This document shows, piece by piece, positions 1,464 through 24,901 of a stretch of 33,712 bases of DNA. A program made the translations under genes and the position numbers. Below the pieces are notes generated by a model. That model made no database searches, had not been told where the DNA came from, and was given only the letters and a program-made list of their open reading frames with translations. Position 1 is the stretch's first letter; the number at the start of each line of letters is the position of its first letter. The stretch is from a bacterium (lineage in GTDB: Bacteria > JACRDZ01 > JAQUKH01), in contig JAQUKH010000027.1 in NCBI GenBank assembly GCA_028719205.1, positions 1 to 33,712 on the forward strand, written 5' to 3'.

Positions 1464-1491
1464 TTGACAGTTTTATTTTCCTAGATATAAT
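1464..1491 (+). promoter_or_regulatory. Sigma70-type promoter for the cytochrome pair
   Basis: TTGACA (1464-1469), 16 nt, TATAAT (1486-1491); full SD AAGGAGGTGA at 1541-1550. Confidence 0.75.
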
Positions 1492-1559
1492 GGAAAGGAT
1501 TAAGTTTGGGAAAATATAAACATTATTAAATTTTACAAGTAAGGAGGTGAAAAAATATA

Positions 1560-2054
1560 ATGAAGAAAACAGCAATTTTTTTAACAATGGCTTTAATGGT
1601 TTTAGCAGGCAGTTATTCTGTTTTAGCTCAGCATGATAATAACTGTAAGGATTGCCATAGCATTCATGATGCAAAAGGTGAAAAAATAGTTGCAGTAGCT
1701 CCCGATACAAAGACTATTAACCCGGCGACAAAAAAACCTTTAGCAGGTATTTCTGCTTTGTGCCAGGGATGCCATAAAGGTGAAGGCGGGCCGGAAATAG
1801 GTATTATGAAATCACATCCGGTTGGAATAGTCCCAAATCCGAAAAGAGCGCAGGTTCCAGCAGAATGGTTGAGAGATGGAGGCCTTTTTGAATGCAGCAG
1901 CTGCCATGATTTCCATCCAAGTAATTCTAATTATAAATATTTAAGAGTTGATGTAGGAGCTAGCGGCACTGATTTAGGTAAATTTTGCGCAGTTTGTCAC
2001 GCCGATAAACGAAGCAAAGGTGAAAAGAAAGCAGCGCCAGCACCGGCAAAATAA
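1560..2054 (+). CDS. Exported tetraheme c-type cytochrome (copy 1)
   Basis: Sec signal ending VLA|QH; four CxxCH motifs (CKDCH, CQGCH, CSSCH, CAVCH) plus four extra His. Confidence 0.92.
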   Translation: MKKTAIFLTMALMVLAGSYSVLAQHDNNCKDCHSIHDAKGEKIVAVAPDTKTINPATKKPLAGISALCQGCHKGEGGPEIGIMKSHPVGIVPNPKRAQVPAEWLRDGGLFECSSCHDFHPSNSNYKYLRVDVGASGTDLGKFCAVCHADKRSKGEKKAAPAPAK

Positions 2055-2064
2055 TTAATATAAC

Positions 2065-2092
2065 AAAAAGAGCCCCAAAAGGGCTCTTTTTT
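2065..2092 (+). terminator. Intrinsic terminator, potentially bidirectional
   Basis: aaaaagagccc-caaaa-gggctctttttt: GC-rich stem flanked by an A-tract and a T-tract. Confidence 0.85.
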
Positions 2093-2095
2093 GTT

Positions 2096-2142
2096 GAGCA
2101 TTGAGTATTGAGGGATGAAATTGCCCTCAATACTTAATACTC
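2096..2142. repeat. Long inverted repeat built from heptamer-like units
   Basis: gagcattgagtattgaggg (2096-2114) and ccctcaatacttaatactc (2124-2142): 18 of 19 positions pair, including one G-U; 9-nt loop. Confidence 0.85.
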
Positions 2143-2157
2143 GTTATAGGAGGATCA

Positions 2158-2628
2158 ATGCAAAAGTTTTTCTTTCTAGTGATGGTTTTAACATTGATTT
2201 TAAAACCTGTTTTTGCGCAGCATGATGAAAATTGTTCGGGCTGCCATAACCTGCATGATGCCAAAGCCCCATTCAGTATGGCGATAAAACCTGATACTAC
2301 TATTATTAATCCCTACACTAAAGAAAAGATATCCGGACAGTCAGCAATTTGTATGGGTTGCCATAACGGATCGGCCGGGCCGGAAATAGATATGAAAAAA
2401 ACGCATCCTGTAGGAATGAAACCAAATCCGGATAAAGTGAAGGTTGATACAACTCTTTTAACTAAAACCGGAATATTTGAATGCTCAAGCTGCCACGATT
2501 TTCACCCAAGCAATACAAAATATAAATATTTAAGGGTAGATGTTAAACCGGAAAATTTAGGTTTATTTTGCGCGTTGTGTCATGCTTCAAAAAGACAGAA
2601 AAACGCGCCTATACCAAGTTTAGAATAA
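2158..2628 (+). CDS. Exported tetraheme c-type cytochrome (copy 2, paralog of 1560-2054)
   Basis: Signal ending VFA|QH; CSGCH, CMGCH, CSSCH, CALCH; SD AGGAGG at 2148-2153; collinear with copy 1. Confidence 0.92.
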   Translation: MQKFFFLVMVLTLILKPVFAQHDENCSGCHNLHDAKAPFSMAIKPDTTIINPYTKEKISGQSAICMGCHNGSAGPEIDMKKTHPVGMKPNPDKVKVDTTLLTKTGIFECSSCHDFHPSNTKYKYLRVDVKPENLGLFCALCHASKRQKNAPIPSLE

Positions 2629-2665: not shown

Positions 2666-3718
2666 ATGAAAATAAAAATATTTTTATTTCTAACAATTAT
2701 TATGGTTTGTTCAGGTTTCTCTAATGTTTACGCTAAGCTTGCGGAAAAGGAGTTGATCGAACTTTCTAAAAATATAGAGGCTAAATTAAAGATATCGGAT
2801 GTAAAAAAGATCGCGATCCTTGAATTTGCTAATTCAAAGGGAGATCTGCCTAATGTAGGGAATTATATAAGAAATAATTTGTTTGATCTTTTTTCAGAAA
2901 GTAAAGATATTAATGTAATGTTAAACCGTGACATTAATGAACTTTTAAAAGAACAAAAAATGTCCGCGGGAGCATTAGCTGATGAAAAGTTTATTATTAG
3001 TATTTTGGGGGTCGACGCGGTTGTAACAGGGATTATTACTGATTTCCCCGGTATGATAAAGATCAATACAAAAGTAACTTTAAAAAATGGAAAATTACTG
3101 GCCGTGTATGTTACTGAAATAATAAAAGATGAAAATTCAAAACCTTTTTTAGACAGGATCATCCAGGGTGATGCTTATAAAGAATCAACAGATAAAAATA
3201 CAAATGTTTATTTTAATGAAAATTTTAATACATATAAACCGAACACAGTCCCTGAAAATATCGGATACGGATTTTATATACTTCAGTCAGAAAATAAAAA
3301 CTATATTACTTCAAATCAGCTTGGTGAAAGAGAGTTGATATGGAAAATAGATTTTCCTGAAAACTTTATTTTTAGTTTTAATTTTTTGCCGGTATCAAAA
3401 GATAGCCGTTTGGACTTCAGCGTCATTTTTGTAGACGAGGTAAAAAACGAATTTATATGTAAATTCAGAGCGGGTGGCGGGGAGGCGGAATATATTCTTA
3501 TCCCGGAATCGTCTAAAACCACTGTGTATTTTTCTTCAACTAATTTAAACAATATTAAATTTGAAAAAAAGAAAGATATTTATAAAATACTTTTAAATGA
3601 TAAAGAGACAAATTTTGGGATTTTTACGAGTTTTAGCCGGTTTAATAAGGTAATCATACGCGCAGATTTCAGCCAGGGAAAATTTACCGATTTTCAGGGA
3701 ACTGATCTCGGCAGATAG
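2666..3718 (+). CDS. Exported hypothetical protein, N-terminal FlgO/CsgG/TolB-N-like domain plus beta-rich C-terminal domain
   Basis: Signal peptide (VYA|K); pattern KIAILEF...NRDINELLKEQK...ILGVDAVVTG...IKINTKV is typical of that fold family. Confidence 0.55.
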   Translation: MKIKIFLFLTIIMVCSGFSNVYAKLAEKELIELSKNIEAKLKISDVKKIAILEFANSKGDLPNVGNYIRNNLFDLFSESKDINVMLNRDINELLKEQKMSAGALADEKFIISILGVDAVVTGIITDFPGMIKINTKVTLKNGKLLAVYVTEIIKDENSKPFLDRIIQGDAYKESTDKNTNVYFNENFNTYKPNTVPENIGYGFYILQSENKNYITSNQLGERELIWKIDFPENFIFSFNFLPVSKDSRLDFSVIFVDEVKNEFICKFRAGGGEAEYILIPESSKTTVYFSSTNLNNIKFEKKKDIYKILLNDKETNFGIFTSFSRFNKVIIRADFSQGKFTDFQGTDLGR

Positions 3719-13533: not shown

Positions 13534-14376
13534 ATGAAACAATTGATTGAAAAAGCAAATGTATTGATGGAAGCGCTGCCGTATATAAAGAAATTTTACG
13601 GTAAAACTATTGTTATCAAATACGGCGGAAGCGCCATGACAAACGAAAGCTTGAAAAGAAGTGTTTGTATGGATATAATTTTGATGAAATATATCGGAAT
13701 TAGCCCTGTGATCGTTCACGGCGGAGGCAAAGAGATATCCGAGTTAATGGTTAAACTCGGTAAACAGCCGAAATTTGTAAACGGGCAAAGAGTTACAGAC
13801 GCTGAAACAGTTAAGATCGTGGAAATGGTACTTTCCGGTTCGATAAATAAAGAACTTGTAGGGTTCATTAATTCAAACGGCGGGAACGCGGTAGGATTAA
13901 GCGGGAAGGATGGGAATCTTATTATTTCAAAGAGGCTTTCTAAAAATTCAGGAGATTTTATCGGGGGTGTCAAAAAAATAAATCCTGAAGTTATTAATTT
14001 GTTGGATGAAAAGGGTTTTATTCCGGTAATTTCATCAGTCGGGTTAGGAGAGGATGGCCTTACATATAATATTAACGCGGATCTCGCGGCAGGCGAGATC
14101 GCTGCTGCGGTTAACGCTGAGAAACTGATCCTGTTAACGGATACACCGGGGGTATTAGATAAAAACGGTAATTTGATACCGCATCTGGACCAGGCCAAAA
14201 TAAAAAAATTGATCAAAGCGGGTGTGATCCAGGGCGGAATGATGCCGAAGATCGCTGCCGGATTAAAGGCGTTAAACGCCGGCGTTAAAAAAGTTCATAT
14301 TATTGACGGAAAGATCGAACATTCTATTTTGCTGGAGATAATGACGGATAAAGGTGTGGGGACGGAAATAGTATAA
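13534..14376 (+). CDS. argB: Acetylglutamate kinase
   Basis: EALPYI, VIKYGGSAM, VHGGG, NINAD and GGMMPK. Confidence 0.96.
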   Translation: MKQLIEKANVLMEALPYIKKFYGKTIVIKYGGSAMTNESLKRSVCMDIILMKYIGISPVIVHGGGKEISELMVKLGKQPKFVNGQRVTDAETVKIVEMVLSGSINKELVGFINSNGGNAVGLSGKDGNLIISKRLSKNSGDFIGGVKKINPEVINLLDEKGFIPVISSVGLGEDGLTYNINADLAAGEIAAAVNAEKLILLTDTPGVLDKNGNLIPHLDQAKIKKLIKAGVIQGGMMPKIAAGLKALNAGVKKVHIIDGKIEHSILLEIMTDKGVGTEIV

Positions 14377-14410
14377 AAGTCACAAAGTTACAAGTGCAAA
14401 AGTCACCAGT
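14377..14410 (+). repeat. Degenerate heptamer-like repeats (AAGTCAC-like) between argB and argD
   Basis: aagtcac a aagttac aagtgca a aagtcac cagt. Confidence 0.55.
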
Positions 14411-14435
14411 AAAAAAATTAGAAGAGAGAAAAATT

Positions 14436-15626
14436 ATGAATAAAGAGAAAATAATAATTAATGAAGAAAAATATGTTTGTCAGACTTATAAGAGAATACC
14501 TGTAGTTTTTGAAAAGGGGGAAGGGTGTTATCTCTGGGATAGTGAAGGAAAACGGTATCTCGATTTTGTCGCGGGACTCGCGGTAAACGCGTTGGGGCAC
14601 GCCCATCCGAAAGTGGTAAAGGCAATAAATAAGCAGGCGAAGAAACTGATTCATACCTCCAACCTATATTATACCGAGCCTATGGTTGATCTCGCGAAAT
14701 TGTTGATCAAAAACAGTTTTAACGGCAAATGTTTTTTCTGTAACAGCGGGGCTGAGGCAAATGAGGCGGCGATAAAACTTACAAGACTTTACAGTAAAAC
14801 CACATTCTCGCCGGACAGATATGAAATCATTACCTTTGATAATTCGTTCCATGGAAGAACTTTGGCCACTATCACGGCTACCGGGCAGAAAAAATATCAG
14901 GAGGGTTTTGAGCCTCTGATGCCTGGTTTTGTGACTATTCCTTTCGGGAACCTTGCCGCGCTTAAAGCGGTGATAAAACCGACAACATGCGCGATCCTGA
15001 CTGAGGTGATACAGGCTGAAGGCGGAATAAATGAAGCGGATATTTCTTTCTGGCAGGGAGTTTCGGAAATAGTAAAAAAAGAAAAAATGCTTTTGATCGT
15101 CGATGAGATCCAGACCGGTATGGGACGGACAGGACAATTATTCGGTTATCAGCAATATGGTTTAGACCCTGATATAATTACTTTAGCTAAAGCATTGGCC
15201 AACGGATTGCCGATAGGGGCAATGATCGCTAAAAAGAAAATAGCGGAAACATTTAAACCCGGGCATCATGCCTCAACCTTTGGGGGTAATCCTTTAGTTA
15301 CGCAGGTTGCTCTAACGGTTTTGAAAACGCTGCTTAAGGAAAATATAATTAATAAAGTAAGAGACGACGGGATTTATTTTCAGGAAAAATTATCAGGTTT
15401 AAAAAATAAATATAAATTTATTACAAAAATAAAAGGAAAGGGGCTGATAATAGGTATGGAGCTGGCTGTTGACGGCCAGAATATAGTTCAGAAGTGTTTT
15501 GAAAAAGGTTTGATAATTAATTGTTTGAAAAATAATATTTTACGGTTCATTCCGCCTTTAATTATTAAAAGAGAGGAAATCGATTCGGCGGTAAAAATTC
15601 TGGATGAGGTTTTTGGGGAGATTTAA
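14436..15626 (+). CDS. argD: Acetylornithine aminotransferase
   Basis: NSGAEANEAA, SFHGRT, DEIQTG, LAKAL and STFGGNP. ATG 14436 is preferred over the GTG at 14394. Confidence 0.94.
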   Translation: MNKEKIIINEEKYVCQTYKRIPVVFEKGEGCYLWDSEGKRYLDFVAGLAVNALGHAHPKVVKAINKQAKKLIHTSNLYYTEPMVDLAKLLIKNSFNGKCFFCNSGAEANEAAIKLTRLYSKTTFSPDRYEIITFDNSFHGRTLATITATGQKKYQEGFEPLMPGFVTIPFGNLAALKAVIKPTTCAILTEVIQAEGGINEADISFWQGVSEIVKKEKMLLIVDEIQTGMGRTGQLFGYQQYGLDPDIITLAKALANGLPIGAMIAKKKIAETFKPGHHASTFGGNPLVTQVALTVLKTLLKENIINKVRDDGIYFQEKLSGLKNKYKFITKIKGKGLIIGMELAVDGQNIVQKCFEKGLIINCLKNNILRFIPPLIIKREEIDSAVKILDEVFGEI

Positions 15627-15628
15627 TT

Positions 15629-16570
15629 ATGATGAAAGATTTAATTAATTTAAAAGATCTAAGCGCGAAAGAAATCAATGAACTCTTTAAATTAGCGTTC
15701 ACAATTAAAAAAAATAAGAAAAAATACAATCAGATCCTAACCGGGAAAACATTGGGATTGCTTTTTGCGAAACCTTCGACAAGAACGCGCGTTTCTTTTG
15801 AAGTCGCGATGCATCAGCTGGGTGGAGATACTATTTTTCTCCGGTCTAAAGAGCTCCAATTGAACAGGGGCGAAACGATCGCGGACACGGCTAAAGTGTT
15901 ATCGCGCTATCTGGACGGCCTTGTTATCAGGACCTTCTCCCAGGAAGAGGTTGAAGTTTTGGCAAAAGAATCCAGTATTCCCGTAATTAACGGTTTAACG
16001 GATAAATTCCATCCCTGCCAGGTTTTAACGGATTATTTTACATTGGTAGAAAAAGGGATCGATCTTAAAAAAATGAAATTCGCGTATGTCGGGGACGGTA
16101 ACAATGTCTGCCATTCATTAATGCAGGCCGCGGTAAAATTAGGAGTTGAATTTTGGGCGGCGGTGCCTGAAGGTTATGAGCCGGATAAGGATATTTTATG
16201 CGAAGTAAGCAGTGAAGCTGATAAAAACGGATCAAAAATACATCTGACTAATTCTCCTCAAGAGGCGGCTGAAAATGCCGATTGTATTTACACTGATGTA
16301 TGGGTCAGCATGGGCCAGGATGATTCAAAAGATAAGAAGATAAGTAAATTCAAAGATTTTCAGATAAATAACGCGTTGGTTAAACTTGCTAAGAAAAATT
16401 ATGTGATCATGCATTGCCTGCCCGCGCACCGTGAAGAAGAAATTACGAGTGAAGTATTAGATAGTAAAAATTCAATCGTATGGGATCAGGCGGAAAACAG
16501 GCTTCATCTGCAAAAGGCGATTCTTGTGACTTTAATGGGAGATAAACTTGAGTTAAACGGTTCCGATTAA
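15629..16570 (+). CDS. argF: Ornithine carbamoyltransferase
   Basis: PSTRT, HPCQ, GDGNNV, TDVWVSMG, HCLP and QAENR. Confidence 0.96.
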   Translation: MMKDLINLKDLSAKEINELFKLAFTIKKNKKKYNQILTGKTLGLLFAKPSTRTRVSFEVAMHQLGGDTIFLRSKELQLNRGETIADTAKVLSRYLDGLVIRTFSQEEVEVLAKESSIPVINGLTDKFHPCQVLTDYFTLVEKGIDLKKMKFAYVGDGNNVCHSLMQAAVKLGVEFWAAVPEGYEPDKDILCEVSSEADKNGSKIHLTNSPQEAAENADCIYTDVWVSMGQDDSKDKKISKFKDFQINNALVKLAKKNYVIMHCLPAHREEEITSEVLDSKNSIVWDQAENRLHLQKAILVTLMGDKLELNGSD

Positions 16571-16620
16571 TATCGGAATCCGCTTTTACTCATTGTTATC
16601 CTCGAAGGGGATAAAAAAAT

Positions 16621-17823
16621 ATGATAAAGAAGATCGTTGTCGCGTATTCAGGAGGATTGGATACCTCGGTAATTGTGCATTGGCTGAAAAATAAATATAA
16701 ATGCGAGATAATCGCTTTTTCCGCCGATGTCGGGCAGGGAGAGGATCTTGAACCTCTAAAGAAAAAAGCCATACAAACTGGAGCGAGCAGGATCTACATC
16801 GAGGATCTTAAAAATGAATTCGCCAATGAATATATTTTACCGGCGATATACGCGAACGCGGTTTATGAAAGTAATTATTTTATGGCAACGGCCCTGAGCA
16901 GGCCTCTGATCGCGAAACACCTGGTAAAGATCGCGTTAAAAGAAAAGGCTGACGCTATCGCCCATGGCTGCACAGGCAAAGGAAATGACCAGGTACGCCT
17001 GGAATTGGCGGTAATGAATCTTGCCCCTCAGTTAAAGATCTTGGCGCCGCTTCGGGATTGGGAGATGAAGTCCCGCGAAGAAGAGATGGCGTACGCTAAA
17101 AAATATAAAATTCCCGTAAAAGCGACAAAAAGATCTCCTTACAGTATTGATAAAAATATCTGGGGTGTAAGTATTGAATGCGGGCTTTTGGAAGACCCCT
17201 GGCAGGTTCCGCCTGAAGACGCCTATCAGATGACAAAATCTCCTCAAAAGGCCCCGGATAAACCGTTGGAAATTGAGATCGAGTTTGTTTCAGGGGTTCC
17301 GGTTAGATTGAACAACAAAAAATATGAACTGGTTGACCTGATCGAGGAATTAAATATTATTGGCGGCGGGTATGGAGTCGGTCGGACGGATATGGTCGAG
17401 AACCGGCTGGTCGGGATTAAATCCCGTGAAATATATGAAGCGCCGGCGGCTTTAATTATTAATAATGCTCACAAGGCCGTAGAAAGTTTAACACTGGACC
17501 GCGAAATGCTCCATTTTAAAGATCAATTAGTGACAAAGTACAGCGAGCTTATTTATTTCGGCCAGTGGTTTACCCCGCTTAGAGAGGCACTGGATGAATT
17601 TATCAGAAAAACTCAAAAATATGTTTCAGGAACTGTTCGGTTAAGATTATATAAAGGAAATTGTGAAGTAATAGGGCGTAAATCGCAATATTCATTATAT
17701 AAAAAAGATTTAGCAACCTATGATGAAGGCGACCTTTTTGATCATCGCTCGGCCGAAGGTTTTGTGAAACTCTGGGGTTTGCCCGGAAAGATCGTCGGGA
17801 TGAGGGACAAAAAAAATGGCTAA
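16621..17823 (+). CDS. argG: Argininosuccinate synthase
   Basis: AYSGGLDTS, HGCTGKGNDQVR and VENRLVGIKSREIYEAP. Confidence 0.97.
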   Translation: MIKKIVVAYSGGLDTSVIVHWLKNKYKCEIIAFSADVGQGEDLEPLKKKAIQTGASRIYIEDLKNEFANEYILPAIYANAVYESNYFMATALSRPLIAKHLVKIALKEKADAIAHGCTGKGNDQVRLELAVMNLAPQLKILAPLRDWEMKSREEEMAYAKKYKIPVKATKRSPYSIDKNIWGVSIECGLLEDPWQVPPEDAYQMTKSPQKAPDKPLEIEIEFVSGVPVRLNNKKYELVDLIEELNIIGGGYGVGRTDMVENRLVGIKSREIYEAPAALIINNAHKAVESLTLDREMLHFKDQLVTKYSELIYFGQWFTPLREALDEFIRKTQKYVSGTVRLRLYKGNCEVIGRKSQYSLYKKDLATYDEGDLFDHRSAEGFVKLWGLPGKIVGMRDKKNG

Positions 17824-19189
17824 TATTTTAAGAAATAAACGTTTTGAAAATGATGTCAGTAATTTGACCCTGGATTTTGTAGAATCGATTTCTTTTGATA
17901 AAAGGCTTGCCGGATATGATATCTCAGGAAGCCTGGCGCATGTTACAATGCTTTCGAAATGCAAGATCATCCCGAAAAATGACGCGGATAAAATAATAAA
18001 AGGATTAAAAGAAATTGGCCTTGAAATCGCGGAGGGAAAGTTCAGATTTAAAACGGAACTCGAGGATATTCACTTTAATATTGAATCACGGTTAAAAGAA
18101 AAAATCGGATCTGTCGCGGGAAAGCTTCATACGGCAAGAAGCAGGAATGACCAGGTGGCGCTGGACCTGCGTTTATTTTTGCGTGAAGAAGTAAAATTGC
18201 AGATCGTGCAGATAAAAAAAATGCAGCATATTTTATTAAATATAGCGGAGAAAAATATTGATCTGATAATGCCCGGATACACGCATCTCCAGCACGCGCA
18301 GCCGGTTTCACTGGCTCATCATTTTTTGGCGTATTATTTCATGTTCCAAAGAGATAAAGAAAGGCTGACAGAAACATTGACAAGGATAAATGTTATGCCT
18401 CTCGGTTCAGCAGCTCTGGCAGGAACGGCATTCCCGATCGACAGGAATTATACGGCAAAACTTCTTAATTTTCCTAAAATAGCAGAGAACAGCATGGACG
18501 CGGTTTCAGACCGTGATTTTGCCGTCGAATATTTATTTGATGCCTCCCTGATAATAATGCACCTGAGCAGGCTCAGCGAAGAATTAATATTATGGTCCAG
18601 CCAGGAATTCAGTTTTATTGAAATAAACGATGAGTTTACGACAGGAAGCAGTATTATGCCGCAGAAGAAAAATCCGGATATCTGTGAACTGGTAAGAGGG
18701 AAAACCGGCCGGGTTTATGGAAATCTTATCTCAATGCTTACAATAATGAAATCTCTTCCGATGACCTATAACAGGGACCTGCAGGAGGATAAGGAAGCTG
18801 TTTTTGATTCAGTGGATACTTTGGAAAAATGCCTGGAAATTTATATAGCGATGCTTCCAAAAATAAAATTTAATGAGAAAAATATGGCGCAGTCAGCGGC
18901 ACTAGGATTTCTTGAAGCTACGGAGATCGCCGATTATCTTGTCAGAGAAGGTATGCCGTTCCGTGACGCGCATTCAATAACCGGTAAAATTGTCCGCTAT
19001 TGCCTGAAAAATAATATAAGATTTCTGGACCTGGATATCGGAACATTCCGCTCATTCTCGGATTTGTTCAGGGATGACATTTATGAGCATGTTACTTTAA
19101 CCCAGTCTGTTGACAGTAAAAAGTCTTTTGGAGGGACTTCATTTAAAAATATCAAAGAAACGATCAGAAAAGAAAAAGGAAGGCTTTAA
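17816..19189 (+). CDS. argH: Argininosuccinate lyase
   Basis: HTARSRNDQ, PGYTHLQHAQP, GSSIMPQKKNPD and YNRDLQEDK. Confidence 0.97.
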   Translation: MANILRNKRFENDVSNLTLDFVESISFDKRLAGYDISGSLAHVTMLSKCKIIPKNDADKIIKGLKEIGLEIAEGKFRFKTELEDIHFNIESRLKEKIGSVAGKLHTARSRNDQVALDLRLFLREEVKLQIVQIKKMQHILLNIAEKNIDLIMPGYTHLQHAQPVSLAHHFLAYYFMFQRDKERLTETLTRINVMPLGSAALAGTAFPIDRNYTAKLLNFPKIAENSMDAVSDRDFAVEYLFDASLIIMHLSRLSEELILWSSQEFSFIEINDEFTTGSSIMPQKKNPDICELVRGKTGRVYGNLISMLTIMKSLPMTYNRDLQEDKEAVFDSVDTLEKCLEIYIAMLPKIKFNEKNMAQSAALGFLEATEIADYLVREGMPFRDAHSITGKIVRYCLKNNIRFLDLDIGTFRSFSDLFRDDIYEHVTLTQSVDSKKSFGGTSFKNIKETIRKEKGRL

Positions 19190-24406: not shown

Positions 24407-24901
24407 ATGCAATATGATGCCATTTTTAGAAAATTTAATGAATTAGATATAGAATACATAGTGGTAGGAGGATTGGCGGTAAATTTTCAGGGAGTTCCAC
24501 GGCTTACATACGATATTGATCTATTAATTTATTTTTCGCAGAAGAATGTGAAAAAACTTGTTAATCAATTATTGGAATGGGGATATAAACCAAAAGTTCC
24601 AGTTGATCCTTTTGATTTTGCTGATGAGACAATAAGAAAAAAATGGATAACTGAAAAAAATATGAAAGCATTTAATTTTTATAATGAAAAATCGCCCATT
24701 GCTGAAATCGATATTATTATCGATTCCCCTGTAAATTATTCTCAAGCTAAGAAAGATATTGTAAAGGTAAAACTGTATGATTTAGAAATTCCAGTCATAT
24801 CAATTCCAGATTTAATTAAGATGAAAGAATTTGCCGGAAGAAAACAGGACCTTATGGATATAGAGCATTTAAAGAGAATAGAAAATTATGAAAAAAAATA
24901 A
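24407..24901 (+). CDS. Pol-beta-like nucleotidyltransferase family protein
   Basis: VVGGLAV...G..R.T.DID and LIKMK...GRKQDLMDI. Confidence 0.8.
   Translation: MQYDAIFRKFNELDIEYIVVGGLAVNFQGVPRLTYDIDLLIYFSQKNVKKLVNQLLEWGYKPKVPVDPFDFADETIRKKWITEKNMKAFNFYNEKSPIAEIDIIIDSPVNYSQAKKDIVKVKLYDLEIPVISIPDLIKMKEFAGRKQDLMDIEHLKRIENYEKK

Follow-up and report, generated by a model that had tools for sequence, protein, structure and literature searches.

The question raised by this locus is whether two short tetrahaem cytochromes, encoded in tandem near the start of contig JAQUKH010000027.1 (assembly GCA_028719205.1), join end to end into a haem wire or work singly as soluble electron carriers. The window analysed here covers positions 1 to 33,712 of that contig (33,712 nucleotides, nt), and an earlier note made from its sequence had read the two proteins, termed P1 and P2 below, as minimal nanowire-type cytochromes possibly forming a two-subunit filament. 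Sequence profiles and a structural model support their placement as compact members of the OmcE/OmcS superfamily, short and cluster-less, such that the OmcE-like architecture in that reading is supported, with filament formation kept as a tentative proposal.

A tandem pair and its family

Gene 1 (1560..2054, + strand) is an open reading frame (ORF) for a 164-amino-acid (aa) precursor of P1, predicted to mature to a 141-aa tetrahaem c-type cytochrome, and gene 2 (2158..2628, + strand) is an ORF for a 156-aa precursor of its paralogue P2, predicted to mature to a 136-aa tetrahaem cytochrome. Both N-termini are hydrophobic and signal-peptide-like, ending in VLA or VFA followed by Q-H; the mature length of about 140 aa given in the earlier note holds, with the Q-H start resting on a cleavage site assigned by eye. 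The CxxCH motifs begin at residues 29, 68, 112 and 143 of P1 and 26, 65, 109 and 138 of P2, with His at residues 25, 33, 36, 72, 86, 116, 119 and 147 of P1 and 22, 30, 33, 69, 83, 113, 116 and 142 of P2. Each protein therefore has eight Cys and eight His, made up of four CxxCH and exactly four other His, in agreement with the count and the motif order first described. The conservation of all 16 residues between the copies was also correctly seen and extends to a 17-sequence alignment in which they are invariant, while the identity of 55–60% estimated by hand proved slightly high, being 53% by BLASTP (84/158 residues, E 4e-61) and 55% of 155 in a global alignment. Beyond its last CxxCH, P1 carries a 17-aa tail rich in K, A and P.

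Both proteins score above cut-off with Pfam Paired_CXXCH_1 (PF09699; 39.7 bits for P1 and 32.6 for P2, cut-off 20.6) and with the TIGR01905 doubled CXXCH domain (32.0 and 33.7 bits, cut-off 25.2). Pfam Cytochrome_C7 gives 38.2 bits on P1 with the model covering just the last two haem motifs, and in the same Pfam scan Cytochrom_CIII (PF02085) stays under its cut-off of 22.9 at 14.2 and 14.5 bits. NCBIfam NrfB (NF008659) reaches 27.9 and 23.1 bits, under its cut-off of 184, with four haems present and not five.

A word-indexed search returned 16 close relatives of the pair, and an exhaustive profile search returned 1355 library representatives at E<=1e-3, spanning single modules of 150–210 aa and giant multihaem proteins that repeat the module. 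With relatives also encoded in 154 stretches of one-genome-per-species contigs, the pattern is, as a feature of sequence, real and far beyond chance. The relatives come mostly from Nitrospirota/Thermodesulfovibrionales metagenome-assembled genomes, others including Anaeromyxobacter, Aquificales and 'Deltaproteobacteria'. Among the cultured bacteria with a member are Anaeromyxobacter terrae and A. soli (L075, L078). Across a 117-sequence alignment the eight Cys are present in 116–117 sequences and the four proximal His in all 117, with the further His kept at His25 (116/117), His36 (110/117), His86 (113/117) and His119 (115/117). Among genomes related to that of the window, the gene is carried by 5/5 of the same phylum and by 0/25 of other phyla. 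To our knowledge, the 'insulated' bacterial cytochrome nanowires solved so far are all from Desulfuromonadia, have subunits of 200–400 aa and are encoded beside porin-type assembly genes; by contrast this compact family is about 140 aa, stand-alone and widespread (154 species genomes, mostly Nitrospirota).

The tandem arrangement itself is confined to one genus. All three genomes of the genus hold two copies, with orthologues 77–90% identical to P1 and 81% identical to P2 (G001, G002), indicating that both paralogues are maintained. That both are kept in 3/3 genomes with every ligand conserved would suit an obligate heteropolymer of P1 and P2, the two-subunit filament of the earlier note. This idea is now very improbable, given that the family is mostly single-copy, with a tandem second copy in just one (L009) of 80 related loci (these and later related-locus counts refer to the best 80 of the 154 stretches) and a single copy in all three other genomes of the phylum. 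A terminator-like hairpin between the genes (see below) points to unequal expression, and P1 and P2 have the same His set, neither resembling a nine-His cap.

Likeness to OmcE, OmcS and other multihaem cytochromes

As single sequences the proteins match solved OmcE weakly (E 0.0053 to 2.2), with P2 finding D. soudanensis OmcE (9yuq) at E 0.0053 and P1 finding OmcS at E 0.32 in a search of the PDB. When the PDB was ranked with a profile built on the 117-sequence alignment, OmcS (6ef8) came top at E 1.1e-8, followed by 9yuq (E 6.9e-7), OmcE 7tfs of G. sulfurreducens (E 1.5e-5) and, in fourth place, NrfB (2OZY, E 1.4e-4), with NrfA (E 6.5e-3), cytochrome c3 (3cyr, E 0.018) and AvECN (8e5g, E 0.077) below. 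The entry 9YUQ is a nanowire bundle of OmcE from D. soudanensis WTL (PMC13712944). The AlphaFold2 (AF2) model of P1 had a predicted local distance difference test score (pLDDT) of 84.4 and a predicted template modelling score (pTM) of 0.71, confidence being lowest (61–67) at residues 21–40. Foldseek of this model gave OmcE 7tfs as the best and sole clear match (E 4.1e-3, prob 1.00), and no c3 chain was among the matches listed, which taken alone counts neither for nor against a c3 fold. The comparison with OmcE, OmcS and ECN structures, which the earlier note had put forward, thus returned OmcS and OmcE, and its remark that P1 and P2 resemble a longer OmcE was borne out.

P1 and P2 share haem/His order, profile homology and fold with OmcE. 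As in 7TFS and 9YUQ, they have four CxxCH and four His in the order H..CxxCHxxH..CxxCH..HP..CxxCHxxH..CxxCH, and both the 'HP' His and the C-terminal CxxCHxxH..[FY]L[RQ]..CxxCH block align. They differ in having about 140 mature residues where OmcE has about 200, in an N-terminal His that lies three residues before the first Cys and not about 16 as in 9yuq, and in a basic C-terminal tail. The OmcE gene cluster has, beside the subunit gene, genes for a large beta-barrel/porin and for two each of multihaem cytochromes and beta-propeller lipoproteins (PMC13712944), and in comparison with that account P1 and P2 have no porin, beta-propeller, multihaem accessory cluster or glycosylation island nearby. 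With OmcS (6EF8) the N-terminal CxxCHxxH..CxxCH block aligns across about 60 residues, and the OmcS layout of six haems in about 400 aa contrasts with the four CxxCH that P1 and P2 carry in 141 and 136 mature residues. Nitrospirota and Aquificota have already been reported to contain OmcE homologues, selected ones with a porin nearby (PMC13712944), and that set may already include members of the compact family. A literature search on OmcE and Nitrospirota multihaem proteins found nothing on the compact family.

Likenesses to soluble proteins bring in a different explanation, namely that P1 and P2 are monomeric periplasmic tetrahaem carriers, analogues of c3, PpcA or STC with all eight His used in one chain, which would link inner-membrane quinol-oxidising complexes to large multihaem cytochromes or outer-membrane conduits. 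P1 and P2 resemble cytochrome c3 and PpcA (c7) in size and in their bis-His haems, and may likewise act as periplasmic carriers, and the fourth-best PDB match, the pentahaem periplasmic NrfB, is soluble and Sec-exported with a related paired-CxxCH C-terminal block. Against this, fold and profile favour OmcE/OmcS and not c3 or c7, with no c3/c7 fold match among those listed and the c3 family score and 3cyr match being as poor as given above. NrfB differs from P1 and P2 in having five haems, and its Foldseek E is 5.6.

His36, fused relatives and the case for a chain

Each protein may be viewed as two di-haem units, H..CxxCHxxH..CxxCH, and its four bis-His haems would be lined up in a row, as in OmcE. 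His119, the second unit's +3 His, would then complete a first-unit haem of its own chain, and His36 (codon 1665..1667, + strand), the first unit's +3 His, would act in trans, because its own chain has no preceding unit, completing the C-terminal-end haem of another copy as His16 does in OmcS. Head-to-tail chains, in effect a haem wire, would be the result. The candidacy of His36 as an inter-subunit ligand draws on analogy, in that hidden Markov model alignments place C9, C12, H13 and H16 of OmcS on C29, C32, H33 and H36 of P1. An OmcS monomer supplies its His-16 as ligand to haem V of the next one (PMC13319180), and OmcE has a haem left unsatisfied until the next subunit completes it (PMC13712944; PMC9473688).

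Fused relatives allow this proposal to be tested in part. A natural fusion clade from other metagenomes comprises six proteins (P0017, P0018, P0166, P0168, P0169 and P0171), five of them full-length with two modules and one with three, that share 42–59% identity with P0018. Their first module has the form CxMCH and lacks the +3 His in 6/6, later modules have CxxCHxxH and keep it in 7/7, and every fusion tail bears a VG[IVT]H motif (VG[IVT]H..DDYL-like). Single-module Nitrospirota proteins have a tail motif, [IV]FxSMDE, with which the end of this fusion motif aligns. The single-module proteins all align with the later-module type. Judged on these sequences, the pattern fits a daisy chain in which each +3 His would complete a haem in the unit before it, with the last unit capped by the tail His. 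P1 and P2 retain His36, lack a His in the tail and contain exactly eight His, so that a monomer would be left with one spare His and one incomplete haem. Conversely, were His36 used within its own chain, as in a soluble carrier, it should be retained in the first modules of fusions, from which it is lost in all six. The fusions thereby supply a testable rule for a trans His, with the +3 His missing in the first module and a His gained in the tail. The giant multihaem relatives were also considered as a guide to this ligand rule and set aside as uninformative, having a different starting motif.

Several observations weigh against chain formation. The fusions represent one lineage, and just 33/117 relatives match the four CxxCH and eight His of the window's proteins, most of the others having nine or more His. 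An extra His lies two or three residues N-terminal of His86 in 68/117, giving most relatives a ninth His near His86, and K/A/P/S-rich C-terminal tails with a median of 34 aa are without counterpart in OmcE or OmcS. A dimer prediction for P1 24–155 with four of the eight haems and a 117-row alignment, run without controls, scored 0.01 against a mark of 0.42, a result listed here yet counted neither way. In the AF2 model of the two-module P0018 the haem-1 motif of module 2 gained no confidence from having a module before it, with a pLDDT of 55 and 48 for the junction blocks at 161–180 and a pTM of 0.55, and the model was uninformative. Neighbours in the 80 related loci are housekeeping genes, and no OmcE-type porin, beta-propeller or multihaem cluster was found in the window, which begins at a contig end. 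Among the 7/117 relatives without His36, two have a tail His, four an extra His before His86 and one just seven His, which gives no usable signal either way since an extra His at 83/84 is equally common in sequences bearing His36 (68/117).

Much of this would suit a soluble carrier. Eight His are enough for four bis-His haems, most relatives have a ninth His near His86, the gene is stand-alone with a Sec-type signal, no lipobox Cys and no accessory export genes alongside, and housekeeping neighbours would be expected of a core respiratory component. The strong promoter and terminator of the locus suit an abundant protein, and the cell is judged to be diderm from Omp85/BamA-type matches. The long basic tails on the family proteins point the other way; such tails are unusual for freely diffusing shuttles. 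Chain formation through His36, argued from sequence and analogy, is put forward at somewhat under even confidence, and the soluble carrier is held at almost the same level, the two being inseparable with the tools used here.

If chains are formed, their place would more probably be the periplasm or cell envelope than outside the cell as a classical OmcE filament, since no dedicated export cluster is found. In its widest form, that the family is a minimal self-assembling envelope or periplasm wire of about 140 aa, formed without a porin/usher cluster, with P1 as major and P2 as minor subunit in this genus, the proposal is doubtful; in this reading the family would belong to the core genes of the host's small phylum and of many Thermodesulfovibrionia-type Nitrospirota. 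A chain-forming P1 would be the smallest natural building block of a haem wire and a convenient scaffold for bioelectronic engineering, and would imply cytochrome polymerisation without the OmcE/OmcS accessory machinery, possibly as periplasmic wires. A monomer would instead represent the ancestral soluble form that gave rise to OmcE/OmcS filaments, and the main periplasmic carrier of these lineages would have been identified.

Expression, neighbourhood and genome context

A sigma-70-type promoter-like site (TTGACA, 16 nt, TATAAT; 12/12 consensus) lies at 1464..1491 (+), 69 nt 5′ of the start of gene 1. Promoter-like sites across the region number 13 against 9.8 +/- 3.1 in shuffles, a count near shuffle level, so that just the perfect site is notable. 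Reading of the sequence also placed a Shine-Dalgarno-like AAGGAGGTG at 1541..1549 (+), 5′ of gene 1. Between the genes lies an intrinsic-terminator-like hairpin (2065..2091, +) with the core GAGCCCC..GGGCTC at 2070–2086 followed by T6; the scan flagged this palindrome on the minus strand, and on the plus strand the T-run comes after the G+C core. It is followed by a second long hairpin of 33 nt (2103..2135, +), which abuts the 5′ side of the gene 2 ribosome-binding site TAGGAGGA (2147–2154, +). The whole spacer (window 2052–2160, +) folds as RNA at -42.4 kcal/mol (z -8.6). The first hairpin is also present in the genus relative G001. Further spacers compared were those of L096 (3421–3493, -) and L009 (3920–4053, +), and that of G002 has a different G+C-rich structure. 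On the basis of the perfect promoter and the terminator-like hairpin between the genes, P1 is probably expressed more strongly than P2, and P1, with its own terminator, would be the major subunit of a chain, P2 being minor or specialised.

The rest of the genome (G000) suits a protein of electron transfer. It is cytochrome-rich, with 42 ORFs containing at least two CxxCH, and carries both Ccm- and ResB/CcsA-type genes for c-type maturation, which the earlier note had named as a check on its reading. P1 and P2 would be exported by Sec, matured by these Ccm/Ccs systems and employed in electron transfer in this multihaem-rich organism. Omp85/BamA-type proteins and three secretins are also encoded. 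Other multihaem loci lie at C12 38726–46306, at C21 23299–33378 and 44118–46805, and on C42. The C21 cluster, with a 15-haem, a 6-haem, a b-type and a 3-haem cytochrome, an NHL beta-propeller and a 34-haem protein, looks from its gene content like one of extracellular-electron-transfer type. Just after a 15-haem protein, C21:46239–46805 (+) encodes a 188-aa four-CxxCH protein with a CxxxCH-like motif and an NHPVEIVP/..FLR.. pattern that recalls the OmcE/OmcS superfamily, for which a single-sequence PDB search gave no OmcE match.

The largest cytochromes suggest a further role for the pair, that of a docking or extension subunit in which His36 would supply the ligand completing the terminal haem, either in a giant multihaem protein or in another partner, and not in a further P1 copy. 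The tetrahaem module is repeated in the genome's own 34-haem (1387 aa) and 37-haem (2526 aa) proteins and in many giant library proteins, and a 15- to 45-haem cytochrome lies directly 3′ of the small gene in 7/80 related loci. Such a role is nevertheless improbable: the giants of this genome lie on other contigs (C12, C21), away from the pair, those examined have another N-terminal motif and give no signal in the bookkeeping of ligands, and the large cytochromes adjoining the gene in the seven loci were rejected as functional partners on account of their different repeat architecture.

Genes that recur near the family member in the 80 related loci encode a methyltransferase (27 loci), ATP synthase subunits (15), an RNase-H-like protein (14) and a Lon-like protease (14), and no porin, beta-propeller or cytochrome partner was found among the recurrent neighbours scanned. 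Gene order around the pair is conserved inside the genus and not in other families of the phylum. Directly upstream in the window are a fragment of a glycosyltransferase family 2 (GT2) gene (3–647, +) and a PgaB/IcaB-like polysaccharide N-deacetylase gene (658–1452, +), which recall the glycosylation genes beside Geobacter omcE clusters and are seen within this genus alone; in L009 an additional 384-aa ORF lies 5′ of the GT2 gene. Downstream, 38 nt past P2 and separated from it by no terminator, lies the gene of a 350-aa secreted protein (2666–3718, +). Near its N-terminus this protein weakly matches CsgG (residues 62–127, Pfam E 0.0085), it has no match in the PDB or NCBIfam, and its nearest Atlas clusters, which are leads, are CsgG-family ones that either have or lack a 3-keto-disaccharide-hydrolase-like domain (scores 0.89 and 0.88). 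It is kept downstream of the pair in G001 and is not conserved there in other families of the phylum.

Further downstream are genes for a metallo-beta-lactamase (MBL) hydrolase, a permease and SecDF, then arginine biosynthesis and other housekeeping genes. The arginine row (13534–19189, +) encodes an amino-acid kinase, a class-III aminotransferase, ornithine carbamoyltransferase, argininosuccinate synthase and argininosuccinate lyase. Amid the housekeeping genes, a 164-aa AbiEii/nucleotidyltransferase-toxin-like ORF (Pfam E 1.5e-6) lies at 24407–24901 (+).
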